Shown here piece by piece: positions 1 through 5,418 of a DNA stretch of 5,418 bases; position 1 is the stretch's first letter; every line of letters begins with the position of its first letter. This stretch comes from a virus. Taxonomy: Duplodnaviria > Heunggongvirae > Uroviricota > Caudoviricetes. The stretch lies in IMG/VR virus record IMGVR_UViG_2541047960_000010. One strand, written 5' to 3'. Under the pieces are notes generated by a model. It ran no database searches. It was not told the origin of the DNA and was given only the letters and a program-made list of their open reading frames with translations. The translations under genes were made by a program, and so were the position numbers.

Positions 1-1143
1 CTATGCTGTTTTGATATCTACGATAATCCAGTCTTTACCACGATCATCATTGTATCGGTCGGTCATTTTTCTGGATTTATGGCCTAACAACTTTTGCGTA
101 TCCAGACCCTGTTCCCGATATAACCGTTCTGACAGAGATCGCTGCTCATGAAATGTGGGCGCAGTTCCTGGCTCCCATTTTATGCCACATTTTTCCCTGG
201 CCTTTTTAAAAGCCGTTGTAAGAGTATTTGCAGAAACCTGGTCTCCTCTGTTTGCTTGAGAGGTAGTGTGACGGTAATGGACCAGATATTTACTAACAAC
301 AGCATCCCTGCACTGAGATATAACTTCACGAAGGGTAATATTTAGAGCATCGCATTTCAGGCTAAGCGGAATAGCAAGTTTTGAACCGGTTTTTTCCTGA
401 GTAATGTGCAACATGTCGTCCCATATATCAGAGAATTTCAAATTGCAGATATCGCCTAAACGTTGTCCAGTAACAAGAGCAAGTAGCATGCCGCATTTTA
501 AATAGGGCTGCCGTCTGCTTACGCTTTCAAATATTGCCTGCCATTCGGGCAGTGATAATCTTTGGCGGTTTACTCGATTTCGCGGTTGTTTTGTTGCCTG
601 CGCTGGGTTAAATCCTGGCGGAACATGTCCTGCGTGTTGTGCTTCTTTGAAGACGTCGATCAACACCATTCTCACGACTTGCGCCATCCTGTTATGACCT
701 TCAGCCTTTACAGCATCAATTATTTCGGCAATATCAAGTGCGGTAATATCCTTGAGGTGTTGCATTCCACAATGCTCACGGAAAAGACGAATGGGTTTAC
801 CTTTTTGCCGATAGGAGTTGGGTTTTAGTTCATTATGTTGCAGCCTGTCCTCCTGGATAGAAATATATTTATCAAGCCATTCTGTCACCGTAATGTCTGA
901 GCGCCTGCCTTTCATTCTTTCTAGACGCTCATTGACGCTTAATATTTGTCGGGTACGTTGTTCAGCAATAATGGTATTTGCTTCAGTAGCAACTTGTTTT
1001 GCTTCATTCTCATCAGTTCCTAAGCTATGAAAACGACCGGATAGTGGATGTTTGTATTGCCAATATACCTTTCCGGTTCGCTTATCTAATTTGCAATATA
1101 AATTGGGTATAGAGATTTTGTGAGATCGGGGTCTAGCAGCCAT
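1..1143 (-). CDS. int: Lambda-family tyrosine integrase (site-specific recombinase), complete; stop codon at window bases 1-3
   Basis: 380-aa ORF. N-terminal arm-binding-like region (MAARPRSHKISIPNLY...) resembles lambda Int (MGRRRSHERRDLPPNLY...). Catalytic signature in lambda-like context: Arg in LVTGQRLGDI, His-x-x-Arg in FHEQRSLSERL, and LLGHKSRKMTDRY carrying the nucleophilic Tyr. Start overlaps the upstream xis by 11 nt, as is typical for xis-int pairs. Clearly divergent from lambda Int, so a different att specificity is expected. Confidence 0.9.
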   Translation of the reverse strand: MAARPRSHKISIPNLYCKLDKRTGKVYWQYKHPLSGRFHSLGTDENEAKQVATEANTIIAEQRTRQILSVNERLERMKGRRSDITVTEWLDKYISIQEDRLQHNELKPNSYRQKGKPIRLFREHCGMQHLKDITALDIAEIIDAVKAEGHNRMAQVVRMVLIDVFKEAQHAGHVPPGFNPAQATKQPRNRVNRQRLSLPEWQAIFESVSRRQPYLKCGMLLALVTGQRLGDICNLKFSDIWDDMLHITQEKTGSKLAIPLSLKCDALNITLREVISQCRDAVVSKYLVHYRHTTSQANRGDQVSANTLTTAFKKAREKCGIKWEPGTAPTFHEQRSLSERLYREQGLDTQKLLGHKSRKMTDRYNDDRGKDWIIVDIKTA

Positions 1144-1369
1144 CAGCGATTATCCGTTGGAGTTTTGGGTTTGCGTTTATTGGGAGTTGCGGTTCTGCAA
1201 GCGTTCCTACAAAACGGGAATTTCGGTCAATCATCCAGTAGCGACCAACTTTTATAGCGGGTGGGGCCATCATTTTCCCTTGCGCGTATTTTTTCAGAAC
1301 TCGCTCACTTGGTGCTAAGTCCCCAAATTCTTCTTTAGCCCAGTCCTGTAAAGTGATTAGTCGAGACAT
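1133..1369 (-). CDS. xis: Excisionase, lambda Xis-like winged-helix directionality factor
   Basis: 78-aa ORF immediately upstream of and overlapping int. N-terminus MSRLITLQDW and PPAIKVGRYWMI parallel lambda Xis MYLTLQEW and PPPVKDGREYLF. Strong RBS (AGGAGG, about 5 nt before the ATG at 1369). Confidence 0.75.
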   Translation of the reverse strand: MSRLITLQDWAKEEFGDLAPSERVLKKYAQGKMMAPPAIKVGRYWMIDRNSRFVGTLAEPQLPINANPKLQRIIADGC

Positions 1370-1508: not shown

Positions 1509-1748
1509 CTATTTCCTGCGTATGGCACGTAACTTCTTAATGTGTTCTGCTGTATCGATCTCTTCGGCTATCCGATCTGCATCAGCTTTATTCACAGGTT
1601 CAAAGTCATGATTAAAGCGGAACATGCTGGCGATACATGTTCTGCCTTTTTGGATGTAGTGAACTTTGTTGTGGGTAGAACGCAGGATTTTGCAGGGAGT
1701 GCCGTGGTGGTCGACGTACCAGGTGTTAGGAAAAATGATTCTGAACAT
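1509..1748 (-). CDS. Hypothetical small protein (79 aa), accessory early-left cargo
   Basis: Open frame with an ATG at 1748 preceded by GAGGTG at about 6 nt; same orientation as the operon and tightly packed (47-nt gap to the upstream gene). No family recognised from the sequence alone. Confidence 0.5.
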   Translation of the reverse strand: MFRIIFPNTWYVDHHGTPCKILRSTHNKVHYIQKGRTCIASMFRFNHDFEPVNKADADRIAEEIDTAEHIKKLRAIRRK

Positions 1749-1795
1749 TTTTACACCTCAGTTGGACGATGTTGAAATTTGCTGCTTTGAGGCCA

Positions 1796-2014
1796 TTACA
1801 ATCCCCATTGTTTGTTCTTAAGTTCGATCTCCTCCTGGCAACTTGCACAAGTCCGACAACCCTGAACGGCCAGGCGTCTTCGCTCATCTATGGGATCGCC
1901 ACACTCACAACAATGAGTGGCAGATATAGCCTGGTGGTTCAGGCGGCGCATTTTTATTGCTGTGTTGCGCTGTAATTCTTCAATTTCTGATGCTGAATCA
2001 ATGATGTCTGCCAT
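1796..2014 (-). CDS. DksA/TraR-family C4 zinc-finger protein (phage TraR-like regulator of host RNA polymerase)
   Basis: 72-aa ORF with a Cx2C-x(17)-Cx2C motif (CCECGDP...GCRTCASC) near the C-terminus, preceded by a helical N-terminal region. Size and motif arrangement match F-plasmid TraR and the lambda orf73 type. Confidence 0.8.
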   Translation of the reverse strand: MADIIDSASEIEELQRNTAIKMRRLNHQAISATHCCECGDPIDERRRLAVQGCRTCASCQEEIELKNKQWGL

Positions 2015-2073
2015 CTTCCATTAATCCCTGAATTGTTGGTTAATACGCTTGAGGGTGAATGCGAATAATAGAA

Positions 2074-2092
2074 AAGGAGCCTGTAGCTCCCT
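2074..2092 (-). terminator. Candidate intrinsic terminator or attenuator hairpin on the leftward transcript
   Basis: Minus-strand RNA reads AG-GGAGC-UACAG-GCUCC-UU followed by a U-rich tail (UUCUAUUAUU): a 5-bp GC-rich stem extendable to 7 bp with one G-U and one A-U pair, 5-nt loop. It sits 21 nt downstream of the 71-aa ORF stop and before the TraR-like gene. The stem is short, so this is weak. Confidence 0.25.
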
Positions 2093-2112
2093 GATGATTT
2101 TGCTTTTCATGT

Positions 2113-2328
2113 TCACCGTTCCTTAAAAACGCCGTTTAACATGCCGATCGCTAGGCTTAAATGAGTCGGTGTGAATCCCATCAGCGTTACCGTTTCGCGG
2201 TGCTTCTTCAGTACGCTACGGCAAATGTCATCGACGTTTTTATCCGGAAACTGCTGTCTGGCTTTTTTGATTTCACAATTAGCCTGACGGGCAATGCTGC
2301 GAAGGGCGTTATTATGTTCTATTGTCAT
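2113..2328 (-). CDS. Hypothetical small protein (71 aa), immediately downstream of the TGT-fold gene
   Basis: The six-frame track gives a 117-aa ORF (2113..2466), but its first 46 codons overlap the end of the 250-aa gene in another frame. The internal ATG at 2328 sits 7 nt after that gene's stop with GAGG spaced 5 nt (TGAGGCCAAT-ATG), so the 71-aa product MTIEHNNALRSIARQ... is the better model. Confidence 0.5.
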   Translation of the reverse strand: MTIEHNNALRSIARQANCEIKKARQQFPDKNVDDICRSVLKKHRETVTLMGFTPTHLSLAIGMLNGVFKER

Positions 2329-2335
2329 ATTGGCC

Positions 2336-3088
2336 TCACACTTCGAATGCCAGCTGAGGGGTAAAGACGTCCCGTTCAGCGTTGTAATTAAGTGAACTGG
2401 CACTGTTGAATGATTCAATGCGTTCCACAAGAACTTGCGTACGGGTTTCTTTACTTGCGGGAGCATATGGCGAACCTACCCAGGATTTGTCGATGCCTAT
2501 ATTTCTTGCGACGTTCGTGCTGTCTGCAGACGAAAGCGGTACATGAGTAAAAATGTCTTTATTTAACATCCGTAACCCATGAATCTTGGTGATTGGGTAG
2601 CCGTACTGATCTACAACATGACGTATAAGATCGCGTAGTTTAGCCCGACACGCTCTCGGTCGTTTTGCATCGTATTCCCCCATCGAGCCGATGCAGACGC
2701 GGGGAAACTCATGGCACAGACGAATAAATCGCTCATCTGGTTCGTTCATGTGCCACACCGGAGCACCAATAAATTTACCGTGAGGCCATGCCGCAATCAG
2801 GGCGTCATTCTCTTCACTGGTTCCGCCGATAACATCCGGGATAACCGCGAATGAGAAACGAGGGTGATTACCCCAGCGTTCAACAAATCTGTAATATTCA
2901 TTCCAGTCTACGGCCTTGTTTTTTGTCCAGAATGTGAATGCACCATTATCAAGAGCAAATGATTGGGTGACTTCGGAAGCCAGATCAATCTGAGCTGGAT
3001 TAGCAAAACTGATGAATGCGTGTCTGCCTTTCCAGGCTTTCAACGCACAGGTATCGGGAGTTATTGGACCACCGTGAAAATGAATCAT
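2336..3088 (-). CDS. TGT-fold (tRNA-guanine transglycosylase superfamily) protein lacking the zinc subdomain; putative DpdA-like DNA 7-deazaguanine transglycosylase
   Basis: 250-aa ORF, RBS GGGAGAG before the ATG at 3088. Motifs line up in order with the TGT TIM-barrel active-site elements of Zymomonas TGT: FALDNGAF vs LTDSGGYQ (Asp102 region), AVIPDV vs MAFDE (Asp156 region), CIGSMGEY vs AVGGLAVGE, and SSADSTNVARNIG vs MFDCVLPTRSGRNG (nucleophile Asp280 region). No CxCxxC...H zinc motif. The CDS call is solid; the functional assignment is by motif only. Confidence 0.6.
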   Translation of the reverse strand: MIHFHGGPITPDTCALKAWKGRHAFISFANPAQIDLASEVTQSFALDNGAFTFWTKNKAVDWNEYYRFVERWGNHPRFSFAVIPDVIGGTSEENDALIAAWPHGKFIGAPVWHMNEPDERFIRLCHEFPRVCIGSMGEYDAKRPRACRAKLRDLIRHVVDQYGYPITKIHGLRMLNKDIFTHVPLSSADSTNVARNIGIDKSWVGSPYAPASKETRTQVLVERIESFNSASSLNYNAERDVFTPQLAFEV

Positions 3089-3243
3089 ACACTCTCCCGT
3101 TTATTATTTATCTCCTCAGCCAGTCGCTGGGCTTTCAGCGGATTTCGGATAACAGAAGGCCCGGGAAATACCCAGCCTCGCTTTGTAACGGAGTAGACGA
3201 AAGTGATCGCACCTACCCGGATATTATCGTGAGGATGCTTCAT
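3085..3243 (-). CDS. Small ORF (52 aa) translationally coupled between exo and the TGT-fold gene; in the position of lambda orf60a
   Basis: Not in the supplied ORF track (too short). Its ATG (3243..3241) overlaps the exo stop as ATGA, and its TGA (3087..3085) overlaps the next gene's ATG as ATGA. Translation: [52 protein letters not shown]. An in-frame ATG two codons upstream (3249) is an alternative start. Confidence 0.5.
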
Positions 3244-3920
3244 CGCCATTGCTCCCCAAATACAAAACCAATTTCAGCCAGTGCCTCGTCCATTTTTTCG
3301 ATGAACTCCGGCACCATCTCGTCAAAACTCGCCATGTACTTTTCATCCCGCTCAACCACGACATAATGCAGTCCTTCACGCTTCATACGCGGGTCATAGT
3401 TGGCAAAGTACCAGGCATCTTTTCGCGTCACCCACATGCTGTACTGCACCTGGGCCATGTAAGCTGACTTTATGGCCTCGAAACCACCGAGCCGGAACTT
3501 CATGAAATCCCGGGAGGTAAACGGGCATTTCAGTTCAAGGCCGTTGCCGTCACTGCATAAACCATCTGGAGAGCAGGCGGTACGCATACTTTCGTCGCGA
3601 TAGATGATCGGGGATTCAGTAACATTCACGCCGGAAGTGAACTCAAACAGGGCTCTGGCGTCGTTCTCGTACTGTTTTCCCCAGGCCAGCGCTTTAGCGT
3701 TAACTTCCGGAGCCACACCGGTGCAAACCTCAGCAAGCAGGGTGTGGAAGTAGGACATTTTCATGTCAGGCCACTTTTTTCCGGAGCGGGGTTTTGCTAT
3801 TACGTTATGAACTTCTGAAGCTGTGATGACGCCGAGCCGTAATTTGTACCACGCATCATCCCCCTGTTCGACAGCTCTCACGTCGATCCCGGTACGCTGC
3901 AGGATAATGTCCGGTGTCAT
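3240..3920 (-). CDS. exo: Lambda exonuclease (Red-alpha), 5'-3' dsDNA exonuclease
   Basis: 226-aa ORF whose translation ([24 protein letters not shown]...[11 protein letters not shown]) matches phage lambda Exo in length and nearly residue for residue, as recalled. Start ATG overlaps the bet stop (ATGA). Confidence 0.95.
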
Positions 3921-4702
3921 GCTGCCACCTTCTGCTCTGCGGCTTTCTGTTTCAGGAATCCAAGAGCTTTTACTGCTTCGGCCTGTGTCAGTTCTGACGA
4001 TGCGCGAATGTCGCGGCGAAATATCTGGGAACAGAGCGGCAATAAGTCGTCATCCCATGTTTTGTCCAGGGCAATCAGCAGAGTGTTAATCTCCTGCATG
4101 GTTTCATCGTTAACCGGAGTGATGTCGCGTTCCGGCTGGCGTTCTGCAGTGTATGCGGTATTTTCGACAATGCGCTCGGCTTCATCCTTGTCATAGATAC
4201 CAGCAAATCCGAAGGCCAGGCGGGCACACTGAATCATGGCTTTATGCCGTAACATCCGTTTGGGATGCGACTGCCACGGGCCGGTGATTTCTCTGCCTTC
4301 GCGGGTTTTGCATGGTTCGCGGCGGCATTCATCCATCCACTCGGTAACGCAGATCGGATGATTGCGGTCTTTGCGGTAAATCCGGCATGTACATGATTCA
4401 TTGTCCTGCTCAAAGTCCATACCATCAAACTGCTGGTTTTCATTGATGATGCGGGACCAGCCATCAACGCCCACCACCGGAACAATGCCGTTCTGCTTAT
4501 CAGGGAAGGCGTAAATTTCTTTCGTCCACGGATTAAGGCCGTACTGGTTGGCGACGATCAACAATGCGATGAACTGCGCATCGCTGGCATCACCTTTAAA
4601 TGCCGTCTGGCGAAGAGTGGTGATCAGTTCCTGTGGGTCGACAGAATCCATGCCGACACGTTCAGCCAGCTTCCCTGCCAGCGTTGCGAGTGCTGTACTC
4701 AT
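3917..4702 (-). CDS. bet: Lambda Beta (Red-beta) single-strand annealing protein
   Basis: 261-aa ORF ([59 protein letters not shown]...) matches lambda Bet in length and sequence as recalled. Sits between gam and exo as in lambda. Confidence 0.95.
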
Positions 4703-4707
4703 CCGTT

Positions 4708-5004
4708 TTATACCTCTGAATCAATATCAGCCTGATGGTGAGCAATGGTTTCAACTATGTACCGGATGTGTTCTGCCATGCGCTCCTGAAACTCAACATC
4801 GTCATCAAACGCACGGGTAATGGCTTTTTTGCTGGCCCCGTGGCGTTGTAAATGATCGATGCATAGCGATTCAAACAGGTGCTGGGGCAGGCCTTTTTCC
4901 ATGTCGTCTGCCAGTTCTGCCTCTTTCTCTTCACGGGCGATCTGCTGGTAGTGACGCGCCCAGCTCTGAGCCTCAAGACGATCCTGAATGTAATAAGCGT
5001 TCAT
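4708..5004 (-). CDS. gam: Gam, host RecBCD nuclease inhibitor (short 98-aa form)
   Basis: 98-aa [24 protein letters not shown]... matches the C-terminal 98 residues of lambda Gam. RBS AGGAG 7 nt upstream of the ATG. The region upstream still encodes ...IFRSSAM in frame (lambda has ...YFRSSAM) but is closed by an in-frame TAA at 5061..5059, so only the short form can be made. Confidence 0.9.
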
Positions 5005-5079
5005 GGCTGAACTCCTGAAAATGGCTGTGAAAATATCGCCCGCGAAATGCCAGGCTGATTAGGAAAACAGGAAAGGGGG

Positions 5080-5223
5080 TTAGTGAATGCTTTTGCTTGA
5101 TCTCAGTTTCAGTATTAATATCCATTTTTTATAAGCGTCGACGGCCTCACGAAACATCTTTTCATCGCCAATAAAAGTGGCGATAGTGAATTTAGTCTGG
5201 ATAGCCATAATTGTTTGATCCAT
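5080..5223 (-). CDS. kil: Kil, host cell-division (FtsZ) inhibitor, 47 aa
   Basis: The supplied 87-aa ORF starts with a TTG and its first 40 codons are the cIII region read in another frame. From the internal ATG at 5223 the product [47 protein letters not shown] matches lambda Kil (47 aa) as recalled. AGGAG lies upstream. Confidence 0.85.
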
Positions 5224-5343
5224 TTTTGGGGACTCCTGGCTGATTGAGTATGTCGATAAGGCGTTTCCATCCGTCACGTAATTTACGGGTGATTCGTTCA
5301 AGTAAAGATTCGGAAGGGCAGCCAGCAACAGGCCACCCTGCAA
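5192..5343 (-). pseudogene. cIII: cIII remnant: 5'-truncated by IS insertion, start codon and RBS lost
   Basis: Minus-strand frame overlapping the kil start translates to [50 protein letters not shown]-stop, which matches lambda CIII from residue 5 to the end (lambda begins MQYAIAGW...). Upstream of the Ile codon the sequence becomes the IS terminus, and no ATG, GTG or TTG exists in frame before the upstream stop at 5371..5369. The junction position is uncertain by about 1 nt. Confidence 0.7.
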
Positions 5344-5418
5344 TGAACCGCCCCGGGAATCCTGGAGACTAAACTTCCTGAGAAAGAGGTAAACAGGATG
5401 ACTAAAAATACTCGTTTT
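5344..5418 (+). mobile_element. Left end of an IS3-family insertion sequence (IS629 / IS1203 / IS3411-like), continuing beyond the window
   Basis: Sequence from 5344 (TGAACCGCCCCGGGAATCCTGGAGACTAAACTTCCTGAGAAAGAGGTAAACAGG-ATG...) matches my recollection of the IS629-group terminal inverted repeat (IS3-family 5'-TG terminus) followed by the orfA RBS and start. It begins exactly where homology to lambda cIII stops. Confidence 0.75.
5398..5418 (+). CDS. IS3-family transposase OrfA, N-terminal 7 codons only (truncated by window end)
   Basis: ATG at 5398 preceded by AAGAGG at about 8 nt. Encodes MTKNTRF, the characteristic N-terminus of IS629-group OrfA (MTKNTRFSPEV...). Confidence 0.7.

Follow-up and report, generated by a model that had tools for sequence, protein, structure and literature searches.

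Gene content of the xis-exo interval

The window, the whole stretch of 5,418 nucleotides of viral DNA analysed here, carries a series of small genes on the minus strand between xis and exo. All five ORFs that a preliminary description had named for positions 1509-3243 were found, the ends of this interval coincide with ORF ends, and the RefSeq annotation of the 100% identical locus in E. coli CE10 agrees with the ORF layout. The family matches obtained in profile searches show that these ORFs are real genes rather than chance reading frames. The interval is an exo-xis segment of the normal kind, within the early-left (pL) operon of a lambdoid prophage integrated at icd, and its two flanking genes bear out the earlier placement in the variable xis-exo region. 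The features are as follows.

1133-1369, minus strand: xis, the left flank, not that of lambda; belongs to an icd-integrating int/xis pair
1509-1748, minus strand: DUF4222 gene, 79 aa (DUF4222, E = 1.4e-18)
1796-2014, minus strand: orf73 orthologue, TraR/DksA-family C4 zinc finger, 72 aa (Pfam zf-dskA_traR, E = 1.2e-8, above the gathering score)
1819-2310: lambda-like module with orf73, the 31-aa ORF and most of orf61 (96.8% nucleotide identity to lambda 30418-30910)
2021-2116, minus strand: 31-aa ORF, absent from the preliminary description (tblastn, 96.8% over 31 aa in lambda)
2113-2328, minus strand: orf61-like gene, 71 aa (phrog_303, E = 4e-34)
2311-3085: actual replacement module, 775 bp, with the dpdA-like gene in the orf63 slot (blastn breakpoints against 4A7 and lambda, junction alignment)
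2336-3088, minus strand: singleton DpdA-like protein, 250 aa, TGT-superfamily TIM barrel (phrog_887 "queuine tRNA-ribosyltransferase", E = 4e-99)
3085-3243, minus strand: orf60a orthologue, 52 aa (DUF1317, Pfam E = 1.5e-32; 48 of 52 residues, or 92%, as in lambda Orf60a)
3240-3920, minus strand: exo, the right flank (97.8% identical to lambda Exo)

[quoted passage not shown] The window resembles lambda in position, strand and operon, and the shared genes are collinear: four of the six interval ORFs (orf60a, orf61, the 31-aa ORF and orf73) are lambda genes in lambda order, and alignment of the products reveals collinear homology with lambda for orf60a, orf73 and orf61. It differs from lambda in having a dpdA-like gene for orf63, DUF4222 for ea22, ea8.5 and orf55, and int and xis of another type, with integration at icd. 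At the DNA level, positions 3086-5345, with orf60a at their left end, are 97.1% identical to lambda. Comparison by blastn with lambda, 4A7, PhiR5_1 and SfI locates four breakpoints, at ~1519, 1819, 2310/2311 and 3085/3086, and the left breakpoint at 1819 recurs against phage PhiR5_1. The DNA and protein comparison with lambda thus shows, directly from the alignments, that the interval is a mosaic of four modules; its non-lambda content consists of two modules only, the 775-bp single-gene swap and the DUF4222 module.

This is in contrast to the earlier reading, in which the whole of 1509-3243 was taken as one foreign cargo cassette of candidate anti-defence ORFs that replaces the ea/orf genes of lambda. 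The replacement holds in part, in that ea22, ea8.5 and orf63 are gone and the DpdA-like and DUF4222 genes are without lambda counterpart; orf60a and orf61, however, are present, and three of the five named ORFs, together with the 31-aa ORF, are exo-xis genes that lambda itself has, and not a different set. Identity to lambda reaches 97% in two blocks of DNA, and the four breakpoints are independent of each other. The small ORFs had further been put forward as candidates for new functions; three of the four belong to the exo-xis set that already has names and published work (PMC8614690), Orf73 has a known mechanism, binding to RNA polymerase (PMC9239242), and no PADLOC or anti-defence signal was found. 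The comparison with lambda and the breakpoints refute a single foreign cassette.

The arrangement is ordinary and already described: it was published with the Shigella flexneri phage SfI, a serotype-converting phage with gtr genes, and the region is the named lambdoid exo-xis region. SfI gp30-gp35 (NC_027339) comprise the same genes in the same order, from DUF4222 to exo and beyond, with 97.6% nucleotide identity across window positions 1519-5345, while int/xis and the attachment site differ to the left of position 1519.

Among the genes shared with lambda, orf60a encodes 52 rather than 60 residues; it ends 8 aa early because its stop codon and the start of the incoming gene overlap (GTATGA). 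The orf61-like product is 71% identical to lambda Orf61 over its N-terminal 24 residues, and its C-terminal 51 residues are 100% identical to lambda in a shifted frame; the gene is intact here, in contrast to the frameshifted or truncated lambda copy, the truncation of which has been noted (PMC8614690). A longer reading of this ORF (117 aa, 2113-2466) is probably fortuitous and was rejected, since its additional N-terminal part falls within the swapped module, and 4A7 and lambda have the 71-aa start as well. The 31-aa ORF is probably the 31-aa peptide gene (putatively "orf2313") seen by ribosome profiling in lambda; a gene for a 31-aa peptide is reported within this block (PMC8614690). The products of orf60a and orf61 would favour lysis in the developmental decision, an effect reported for lambda and Stx phages.

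The 72-aa gene proved to be of the TraR zinc finger type, as had been proposed. TIGR02419 also matches its product (E = 1.3e-14), below the cut-off of that model. The translation contains a DxxDxA motif (D3, D6, A8) and the finger C35-x2-C38...C56-x2-C59, and it is 91.5% identical over 71 aa to a lambda ORF that is unannotated in the lambda reference record. The last ~8 codons are unlike lambda, as recombination has left a breakpoint within the gene, at 1819. The zf-dskA_traR domain, the DxxDxA tip motif, the C4 finger and an arginine cluster are in common with TraR of the F plasmid and lambda Orf73. Lambda Orf73 binds RNA polymerase at the secondary channel and inhibits rRNA promoters (PMC9239242, from which the definition of the DxxDxA motif is taken); the orf73 product of the window would likewise act on RNA polymerase and silence the promoters of rRNA and ribosomal-protein genes. 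At the distal position, held in lambda by ea22, ea8.5 and orf55, the DUF4222 gene is predicted to encode a small SH3/Tudor-like β-barrel followed by a long C-terminal helix. No Ea22 homologue was found downstream of orf73, and comparison with lambda confirms the absence of ea22 and ea8.5.

A gene-for-gene exchange in the orf63 slot

The slot between orf60a and orf61 is occupied by orf63 (DUF1382) in lambda and most E. coli lambdoid prophages and by the DpdA-like gene in the window, where comparison with lambda and 4A7 revealed no match to orf63. The orf63 modules of lambda and phage 4A7 span 283 bp and are 97% identical to one another, as against 775 bp for the replacement module. Homology is lost directly after the ATG of the slot gene and is regained at the start of the orf61-like gene. 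These junctions show a clean gene-for-gene swap of a singleton DpdA homologue for orf63, with precise boundaries; dpdA is an allelic alternative to orf63. Among 5426 complete E. coli genomes, the slot carries the orf63 allele in 3167 (~58%) and the DpdA allele in 100 (~2%).

The start codon of the DpdA gene overlaps the stop codon of orf60a (ATGA), so that the two genes are start/stop-coupled, and no promoter-like site was found on the minus (coding) strand between 1300 and 3400. On both grounds, an autonomous moron was rejected as an explanation of the DpdA gene. Three genomes match the window at 100% identity; what they carry is a prophage remnant with an IS3 in place of the pL/N region, and the genes may be silent there.

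Relationship of the 250-aa protein to DpdA and other transglycosylases

The one unusual product of the interval agrees with the TGT fold assigned to it earlier, in that it belongs to the TGT superfamily with a TIM-barrel fold, and it had already been catalogued: it is 100% identical to gp34 of Shigella phage SfI, which is listed as a DpdA-only phage with gp34 as its "singleton DpdA" (Hutinet et al. 2019). Alignment of profiles with hhalign relates it to CAjan DpdA with a probability of 99% (E = 7.7e-18, 172 columns), and tblastn relates it to the singleton DpdA of Salmonella phage 7-11 (E = 1e-27). HMMER searches gave no TGT/DpdA match in Pfam, NCBIfam, PADLOC or PDB sequences, and searches of the PDB sequences with the single protein and with a profile of 53 sequences returned noise only. 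Such silence at the HMMER level is normal for phage DpdAs, as the CAjan DpdA sequence, used as a query, likewise matched nothing in PDB or Pfam.

In an alignment of 53 homologues, down to 32% identity, no variation is seen at D47, H170, D189 or S190, and conservation is 90% or higher at D85 and H113. The LDxGAF, D85, H113 and D189-S motifs are common to the 250-aa protein and CAjan DpdA. The spacing of the putative catalytic residues resembles that of D95/F99/D130/H181/D256 in bacterial DpdA (bDpdA): the offset of D47 and F51 (+4) and the distance from H113 to D189 (76) mirror Asp95/Phe99 and His181-to-Asp256 (75), respectively, the mapping being made by comparison of motifs and spacing. Conservation of the putative catalytic and base-recognition residues over such deep divergence argues for an active transglycosylase.

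Comparison with the phage enzymes (DpdA1 of CAjan and 9g; the singletons of 7-11 and HK106) reveals 36-37% identity to the 7-11 and HK106 proteins and the common motifs LDxGAF, PDV/D, PxxH, HG and DS(S/T); all are phage-encoded and apparently without a Zn subdomain. The 250-aa protein ends ~55 aa before the C-terminus of CAjan DpdA, and it is carried by a temperate lambdoid prophage rather than a virulent Queuovirinae phage. Bacterial DpdA (Salmonella Montevideo, PDB 7UI4) and tRNA-guanine transglycosylases show 9-16% identity to it, no HMMER-level match and a length of 375-415 aa against 250 aa; the 250-aa protein also differs in having no structural Zn site, and neither a DpdB ATPase nor a dpd cluster accompanies it. 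No conserved Cys/His cluster corresponding to the structural Zn2+ site of TGT and bacterial DpdA was observed in the 53 homologues. This site appears to be absent in CAjan DpdA too and thus seems to define bDpdA and TGT rather than phage DpdA. The best structural match is not DpdA but Cap10 (PDB 9NTN), a protein-modifying TGT-like enzyme of type IV CBASS, to which the identity is 9%; the window contains no Cap9/QueC-like partner or CD-NTase and gives no PADLOC hit.

No preQ0/G+ synthesis genes and no DpdB partner were found in the window, SfI or the CE10 context, which makes the DpdA homologue a singleton in the sense of Hutinet et al. 2019. Distant long homologues adjoin genes for Prok_Ub, E2 and E1, with no que genes in that context. 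A homologue in a Caulobacter phage is coupled to a QueD-like gene, which ties the clade to the 7-deazaguanine pathway.

Proposed base exchange and competing readings

The sequence relationships point to a protein that most likely exchanges guanine in phage DNA for host preQ0 during lytic growth. The DpdA homologue would be made only when pL fires, in lytic growth or upon induction. D189 would attack C1' and displace guanine from double-stranded DNA in a TGT-type base exchange, with D47 serving as acid/base, and preQ0 supplied by the host through the queCDE/folE pathway of E. coli would take the place of guanine. A fraction of phage guanines would thereby become dPreQ0 or a derivative, and such marks would partly shield the phage from restriction in the next host. 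Taken as a whole, an exo-xis mosaic together with base exchange by a singleton DpdA that uses host preQ0 is the best explanation of the interval, and we consider it probable. Against the proposed exchange speak the lack of HMMER-level matches, the missing counterpart of the Zn site, Cap10 as the best structural match, and the remnant state of the prophage in the three identical genomes.

Several reports bear on this activity. Genetic work has shown that dPreQ0 in DNA requires CAjan DpdA. The DpdA of 9g, expressed alone in E. coli, leads to dPreQ0 in plasmid DNA at 0.03-0.3% of G, a precedent for the use of preQ0 from the host; it fails to rescue tRNA modification in an E. coli tgt mutant. The DNA of Salmonella phage 7-11, which encodes a singleton DpdA, contains about 50 dADG per 10^6 nt (about 0.02% of G), and no DNA modification was found in Orion, another singleton-DpdA phage. 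The gamma-proteobacterial singletons form a cluster separate from that of the DpdAs linked to a pathway, and a divergence in function has been raised as a possibility (Hutinet et al. 2019). A literature search found no work that links the exo-xis region to a transglycosylase or that tests a prophage singleton DpdA.

The separate clustering of the singletons and the findings on 7-11 and Orion leave room for a diverged protein that confers no DNA protection, being a weak or relict enzyme that leaves only traces, or acting on another substrate (RNA, or protein as Cap10) or with another base (preQ1, CDG or queuine). The lack of a Zn site, a length below that of both bDpdA and CAjan DpdA, and the Prok_Ub, E2 and E1 neighbours found in place of que genes for the distant long homologues point in the same direction. 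However, the strongest profile homology is to a DNA-modifying DpdA (99%), and the putative catalytic and base-recognition residues are all conserved; the QueD-like gene next to the Caulobacter phage homologue and the failure of 9g DpdA to restore tRNA modification in the tgt mutant also count against divergence. A QueC-like (Cap9) partner is missing from the window, and the Cap models of PADLOC miss the 250-aa protein. We hold a divergence of this kind to be possible but doubtful.

A narrower proposal retains DNA as the substrate and sees the DpdA homologue as countering the host's Dpd restriction-modification, by placing the same preQ0/ADG "self" mark and giving no general shield against classical restriction enzymes. 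Bacterial Dpd systems insert dPreQ0/dADG in DNA and restrict unmodified DNA, bacterial DpdA is present in 46 E. coli strains, and the low level of modification by singleton and bacterial DpdAs would fit a self-mark better than bulk protection; the gene, however, occurs in only about 2% of E. coli genomes, and this countermeasure seems improbable. In a more novel reading, the lone DpdA-like enzyme found in temperate phages of the lambdoid and P22-like kinds may be a diverged transglycosylase and not a bulk shield. It could use host preQ0 to write a "self" mark, sparse and motif-specific, against Dpd-type systems, or it could have a non-DNA substrate, as Cap10 has. This reading is, in our view, rather unlikely; if true, the orf63 swap would bring a new kind of host-interaction activity into the classic developmental-switch region of the pL operon.

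The locus provides a tractable test case, in SfI, PhiR5_1 and inducible E. coli prophages, for whether DpdA-only temperate phages modify their DNA with host preQ0 and gain protection from it.

The exo-xis interval and its lambda counterpart

The window corresponds to the left end of a lambdoid prophage with its integration site adjoining icd, and loci 100% identical to it are present in E. coli CE10, N32 and IAI39. Its genes are arranged as follows:

1-1143, minus strand: int
1133-1369, minus strand: xis
1509-1748, minus strand: DUF4222 gene, 79 aa
1796-2014, minus strand: TraR/DksA zinc-finger gene (orf73), 72 aa
2021-2116, minus strand: 31-aa ORF
2113-2328, minus strand: 71-aa ORF (orf61-like)
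2336-3088, minus strand: 250-aa ORF (DpdA-like)
3085-3243, minus strand: 52-aa DUF1317 ORF (orf60a)
Following the 52-aa ORF, minus strand: exo, bet, gam, kil and cIII, in this order

The preliminary description took 1509-3243 for a cargo cassette, a gene set different from that of lambda. The interval coincides with ORF ends, and the strong Pfam or PHROGs family match of each ORF named there (E 1e-8 to 4e-99) indicates real genes. The assignments of a tRNA-guanine transglycosylase (TGT) fold and a TraR-like zinc finger are correct, while the idea of a different set, or cargo, mostly fails. Comparison of lambda 27700-33600 with the window as DNA and as proteins, named in that description as the decisive test, identifies four of the six ORFs as collinear exo-xis genes of lambda. 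DNA identity is 97.1% between 3086-5345 and lambda 31194-33452, spanning orf60a through cIII, and 96.8% between 1819-2310 and lambda 30418-30910. The 52-aa ORF is lambda Orf60a (48/52 residues identical). Over 71 residues, the TraR-like ORF shows 91.5% identity to a lambda ORF that lacks annotation in the reference record and is termed orf73 in the literature (PMC9239242); this gap probably led to the gene being regarded as foreign to lambda. The 31-aa ORF has a 97% identical lambda counterpart and is probably the 31-aa peptide gene found by ribosome profiling (PMC8614690). We also note that orf73 and the 31-aa ORF are intact but unannotated in lambda NC_001416 (2702-2914 and 2924-3016 of the segment compared; ~30401-30613 and ~30623-30715 of the record), and that the 31-aa ORF, part of the lambda-like module, contains at 2074-2092 of the window, on its coding (minus) strand, a terminator-like hairpin with a T-run after it.

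The 71-aa ORF corresponds to orf61. Residues 1-24 align with the C-terminal portion of lambda Orf61, and the final 51 occur with 100% identity in another lambda reading frame (window 2113-2328 versus 3016-3325 of the lambda segment). The match in two frames means that lambda orf61 is frameshifted or truncated, in agreement with Donaldson, who noted that lambda Orf61 looks truncated relative to Stx-phage Orf61 (PMC8614690). From these frames, orf61 is intact in the window and most prophages and truncated in lambda PaPa.

The region is the named exo-xis region, in whose published description a variable set follows the conserved block orf60a-orf63-orf61-orf73-ea22 (PMC8614690). The arrangement has already been described: the published SfI genome carries an identical set of genes, identically ordered, at ~97.6% nucleotide identity. 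The sole unusual protein, the DpdA-like one, is also catalogued, and the finding overall is ordinary and already explained. Lambda Orf73 is an RNA polymerase-binding protein that inhibits the promoters for rRNA and ribosomal proteins and gives a 3-4 fold larger burst size (PMC9239242); the window orf73 product, with its DxxDxA motif and C4 finger, should behave similarly. For both orf60a and orf61, a pro-lytic modulating role has been reported (PMC8614690). The DUF4222 gene has no lambda counterpart in the window-lambda comparison and is found only in Enterobacteriaceae; its predicted structure (pLDDT 81) is a small SH3/Tudor-like barrel with a long helix.

Module boundaries and the orf63 slot

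Phage 4A7 shares the int/xis type of the window, and the two are homologous without interruption over 1-2310 (98.6%) and 3086-5086 (96.5%). Between 2310 and 3086 the window holds 775 bp, versus a 283-bp orf63/DUF1382 module in both 4A7 and lambda (97% mutual identity). On the coding strand the three are alike through the slot-gene ATG (…AATAAACGGG.G..TGTATG), diverge right after it, and reconverge where the orf61-like gene starts (ATGACA); judged by these junctions, the swap is a clean gene-for-gene replacement. As its side effect, orf60a ends at an overlapping TGA, with 52 aa versus 60. A second recurrent breakpoint falls within the 3' end of orf73, at 1819; past this point lambda and PhiR5_1 have ea22, whereas the window, 4A7 and SfI have DUF4222; SfI homology begins at 1519. 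The breakpoints divide 1509-3243 into four modules rather than a single cassette. The two slot alleles are far from equally common: the orf63 module is present in 3167/5426 complete E. coli genomes and the 250-aa gene in 100 of them, where every copy is chromosomal and identity is 99% or higher.

The 139-bp DUF4222-xis gap contains, at 1463-1501, an AT-rich inverted repeat whose stem is 16 bp long (GATAAATT...AATTTATC); the repeat is conserved in 4A7, as shown by its position within the 98.6% block. In the window-identical genomes CE10, N32 and IAI39, an IS3-family element (11918-13300 of the CE10 locus, ~500 bp past the right end of the window) is observed directly upstream of an ea10-like gene. 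In these genomes the ral-N-pL-immunity-replication-lysis region is absent, the next features being a partial iss, the small terminase subunit and a truncated form of the large one. In these genomes the prophage is a remnant whose exo-xis genes probably no longer have pL.

The DpdA-like protein

A HMMER search with the 250-aa protein gave no match in Pfam, NCBIfam, PADLOC or PDB sequences; it matches PHROG 887 (“queuine tRNA-ribosyltransferase”) with E 4e-99. It belongs to a large family, with 6182 clusters from one search and 1700 representatives at 50% identity, that ranges over Enterobacterales, Aeromonas, Vibrio and beyond. The tblastn relatives of the protein include the P22-like BTP1 homologue (68%) and the singleton DpdAs, those without linked preQ0/G+ synthesis genes, of Salmonella phage 7-11 and HK106 (36-37% identity). 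A 53-sequence profile matches DpdA of phage CAjan, genetically shown to be necessary for dPreQ0 in phage DNA, with 99% probability (E 7.7e-18, 172 columns). Among homologues as distant as 32% identity, D47, H170, D189 and S190 never vary, conservation of D85 and H113 is at least 90%, and all six align with CAjan DpdA. The likeness to the bacterial DpdA (bDpdA) active site, mapped by motif and spacing only, comprises LD47xGAF51, D85, H113 and 76 residues to D189, compared with Asp95/Phe99, Asp130, His181 and Asp256. The homologues have no conserved Cys cluster and so lack the Zn site of TGT and bDpdA, which is seemingly missing from CAjan DpdA too.

The likeliest activity, proposed tentatively and at slightly under even odds, would be TGT-type base exchange on phage DNA with host preQ0, which may give partial anti-restriction protection. 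DpdA of 9g alone inserts dPreQ0 into plasmid DNA in E. coli, and the hosts of gamma-proteobacterial singleton-DpdA phages have the full queuosine pathway and could provide the base. SfI YP_009147480, to which this protein is 100% identical, is listed among DpdA-only phages in the Supplementary Data of Hutinet et al. 2019, who placed gamma-proteobacterial phage singletons in their own cluster and noted that their function may have diverged. Among singleton-DpdA phages, 7-11 has only ~50 dADG per 10^6 nt and Orion none. The main alternative, which we regard as somewhat less likely than preQ0 exchange, is an activity that has diverged, is weak or has another target. No paper was found in the literature that tests a lambdoid singleton DpdA or ties one to the exo-xis region. 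The start/stop coupling of the gene to orf60a, with no promoter-like site found on its coding strand, suggests that it would be expressed from pL, in lytic development only.

DpdA-like homologues in other phages

Elsewhere among temperate phages, homologues occupy different ea-region slots: in BTP1 (3501-4256) the slot lies between ea22-like and eaA genes, in HK106 (3495-4295) it adjoins lambdap35-like and xis, and in phage Eeyore it adjoins a TraR-like gene. The DpdA-like gene travels as a single-gene module inside early-left operons. Caulobacter phage DMCA (4705-5726) encodes a 241-aa homologue with ~40% identity, start/stop-coupled to a 98-aa QueD-like 6-carboxytetrahydropterin synthase; no further que genes are annotated near the pair. 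Long distant homologues of 397 and 424 aa are observed in the metagenomic contigs L013 (863-2056) and L014 (6001-7275), each with a Prok_Ub gene two to three genes downstream. Prok-E2_D, ThiF-type E1 and PAPS_reduct genes come after the Prok_Ub gene in L013, and L014 additionally encodes a 1480-aa methylase/helicase-type protein.
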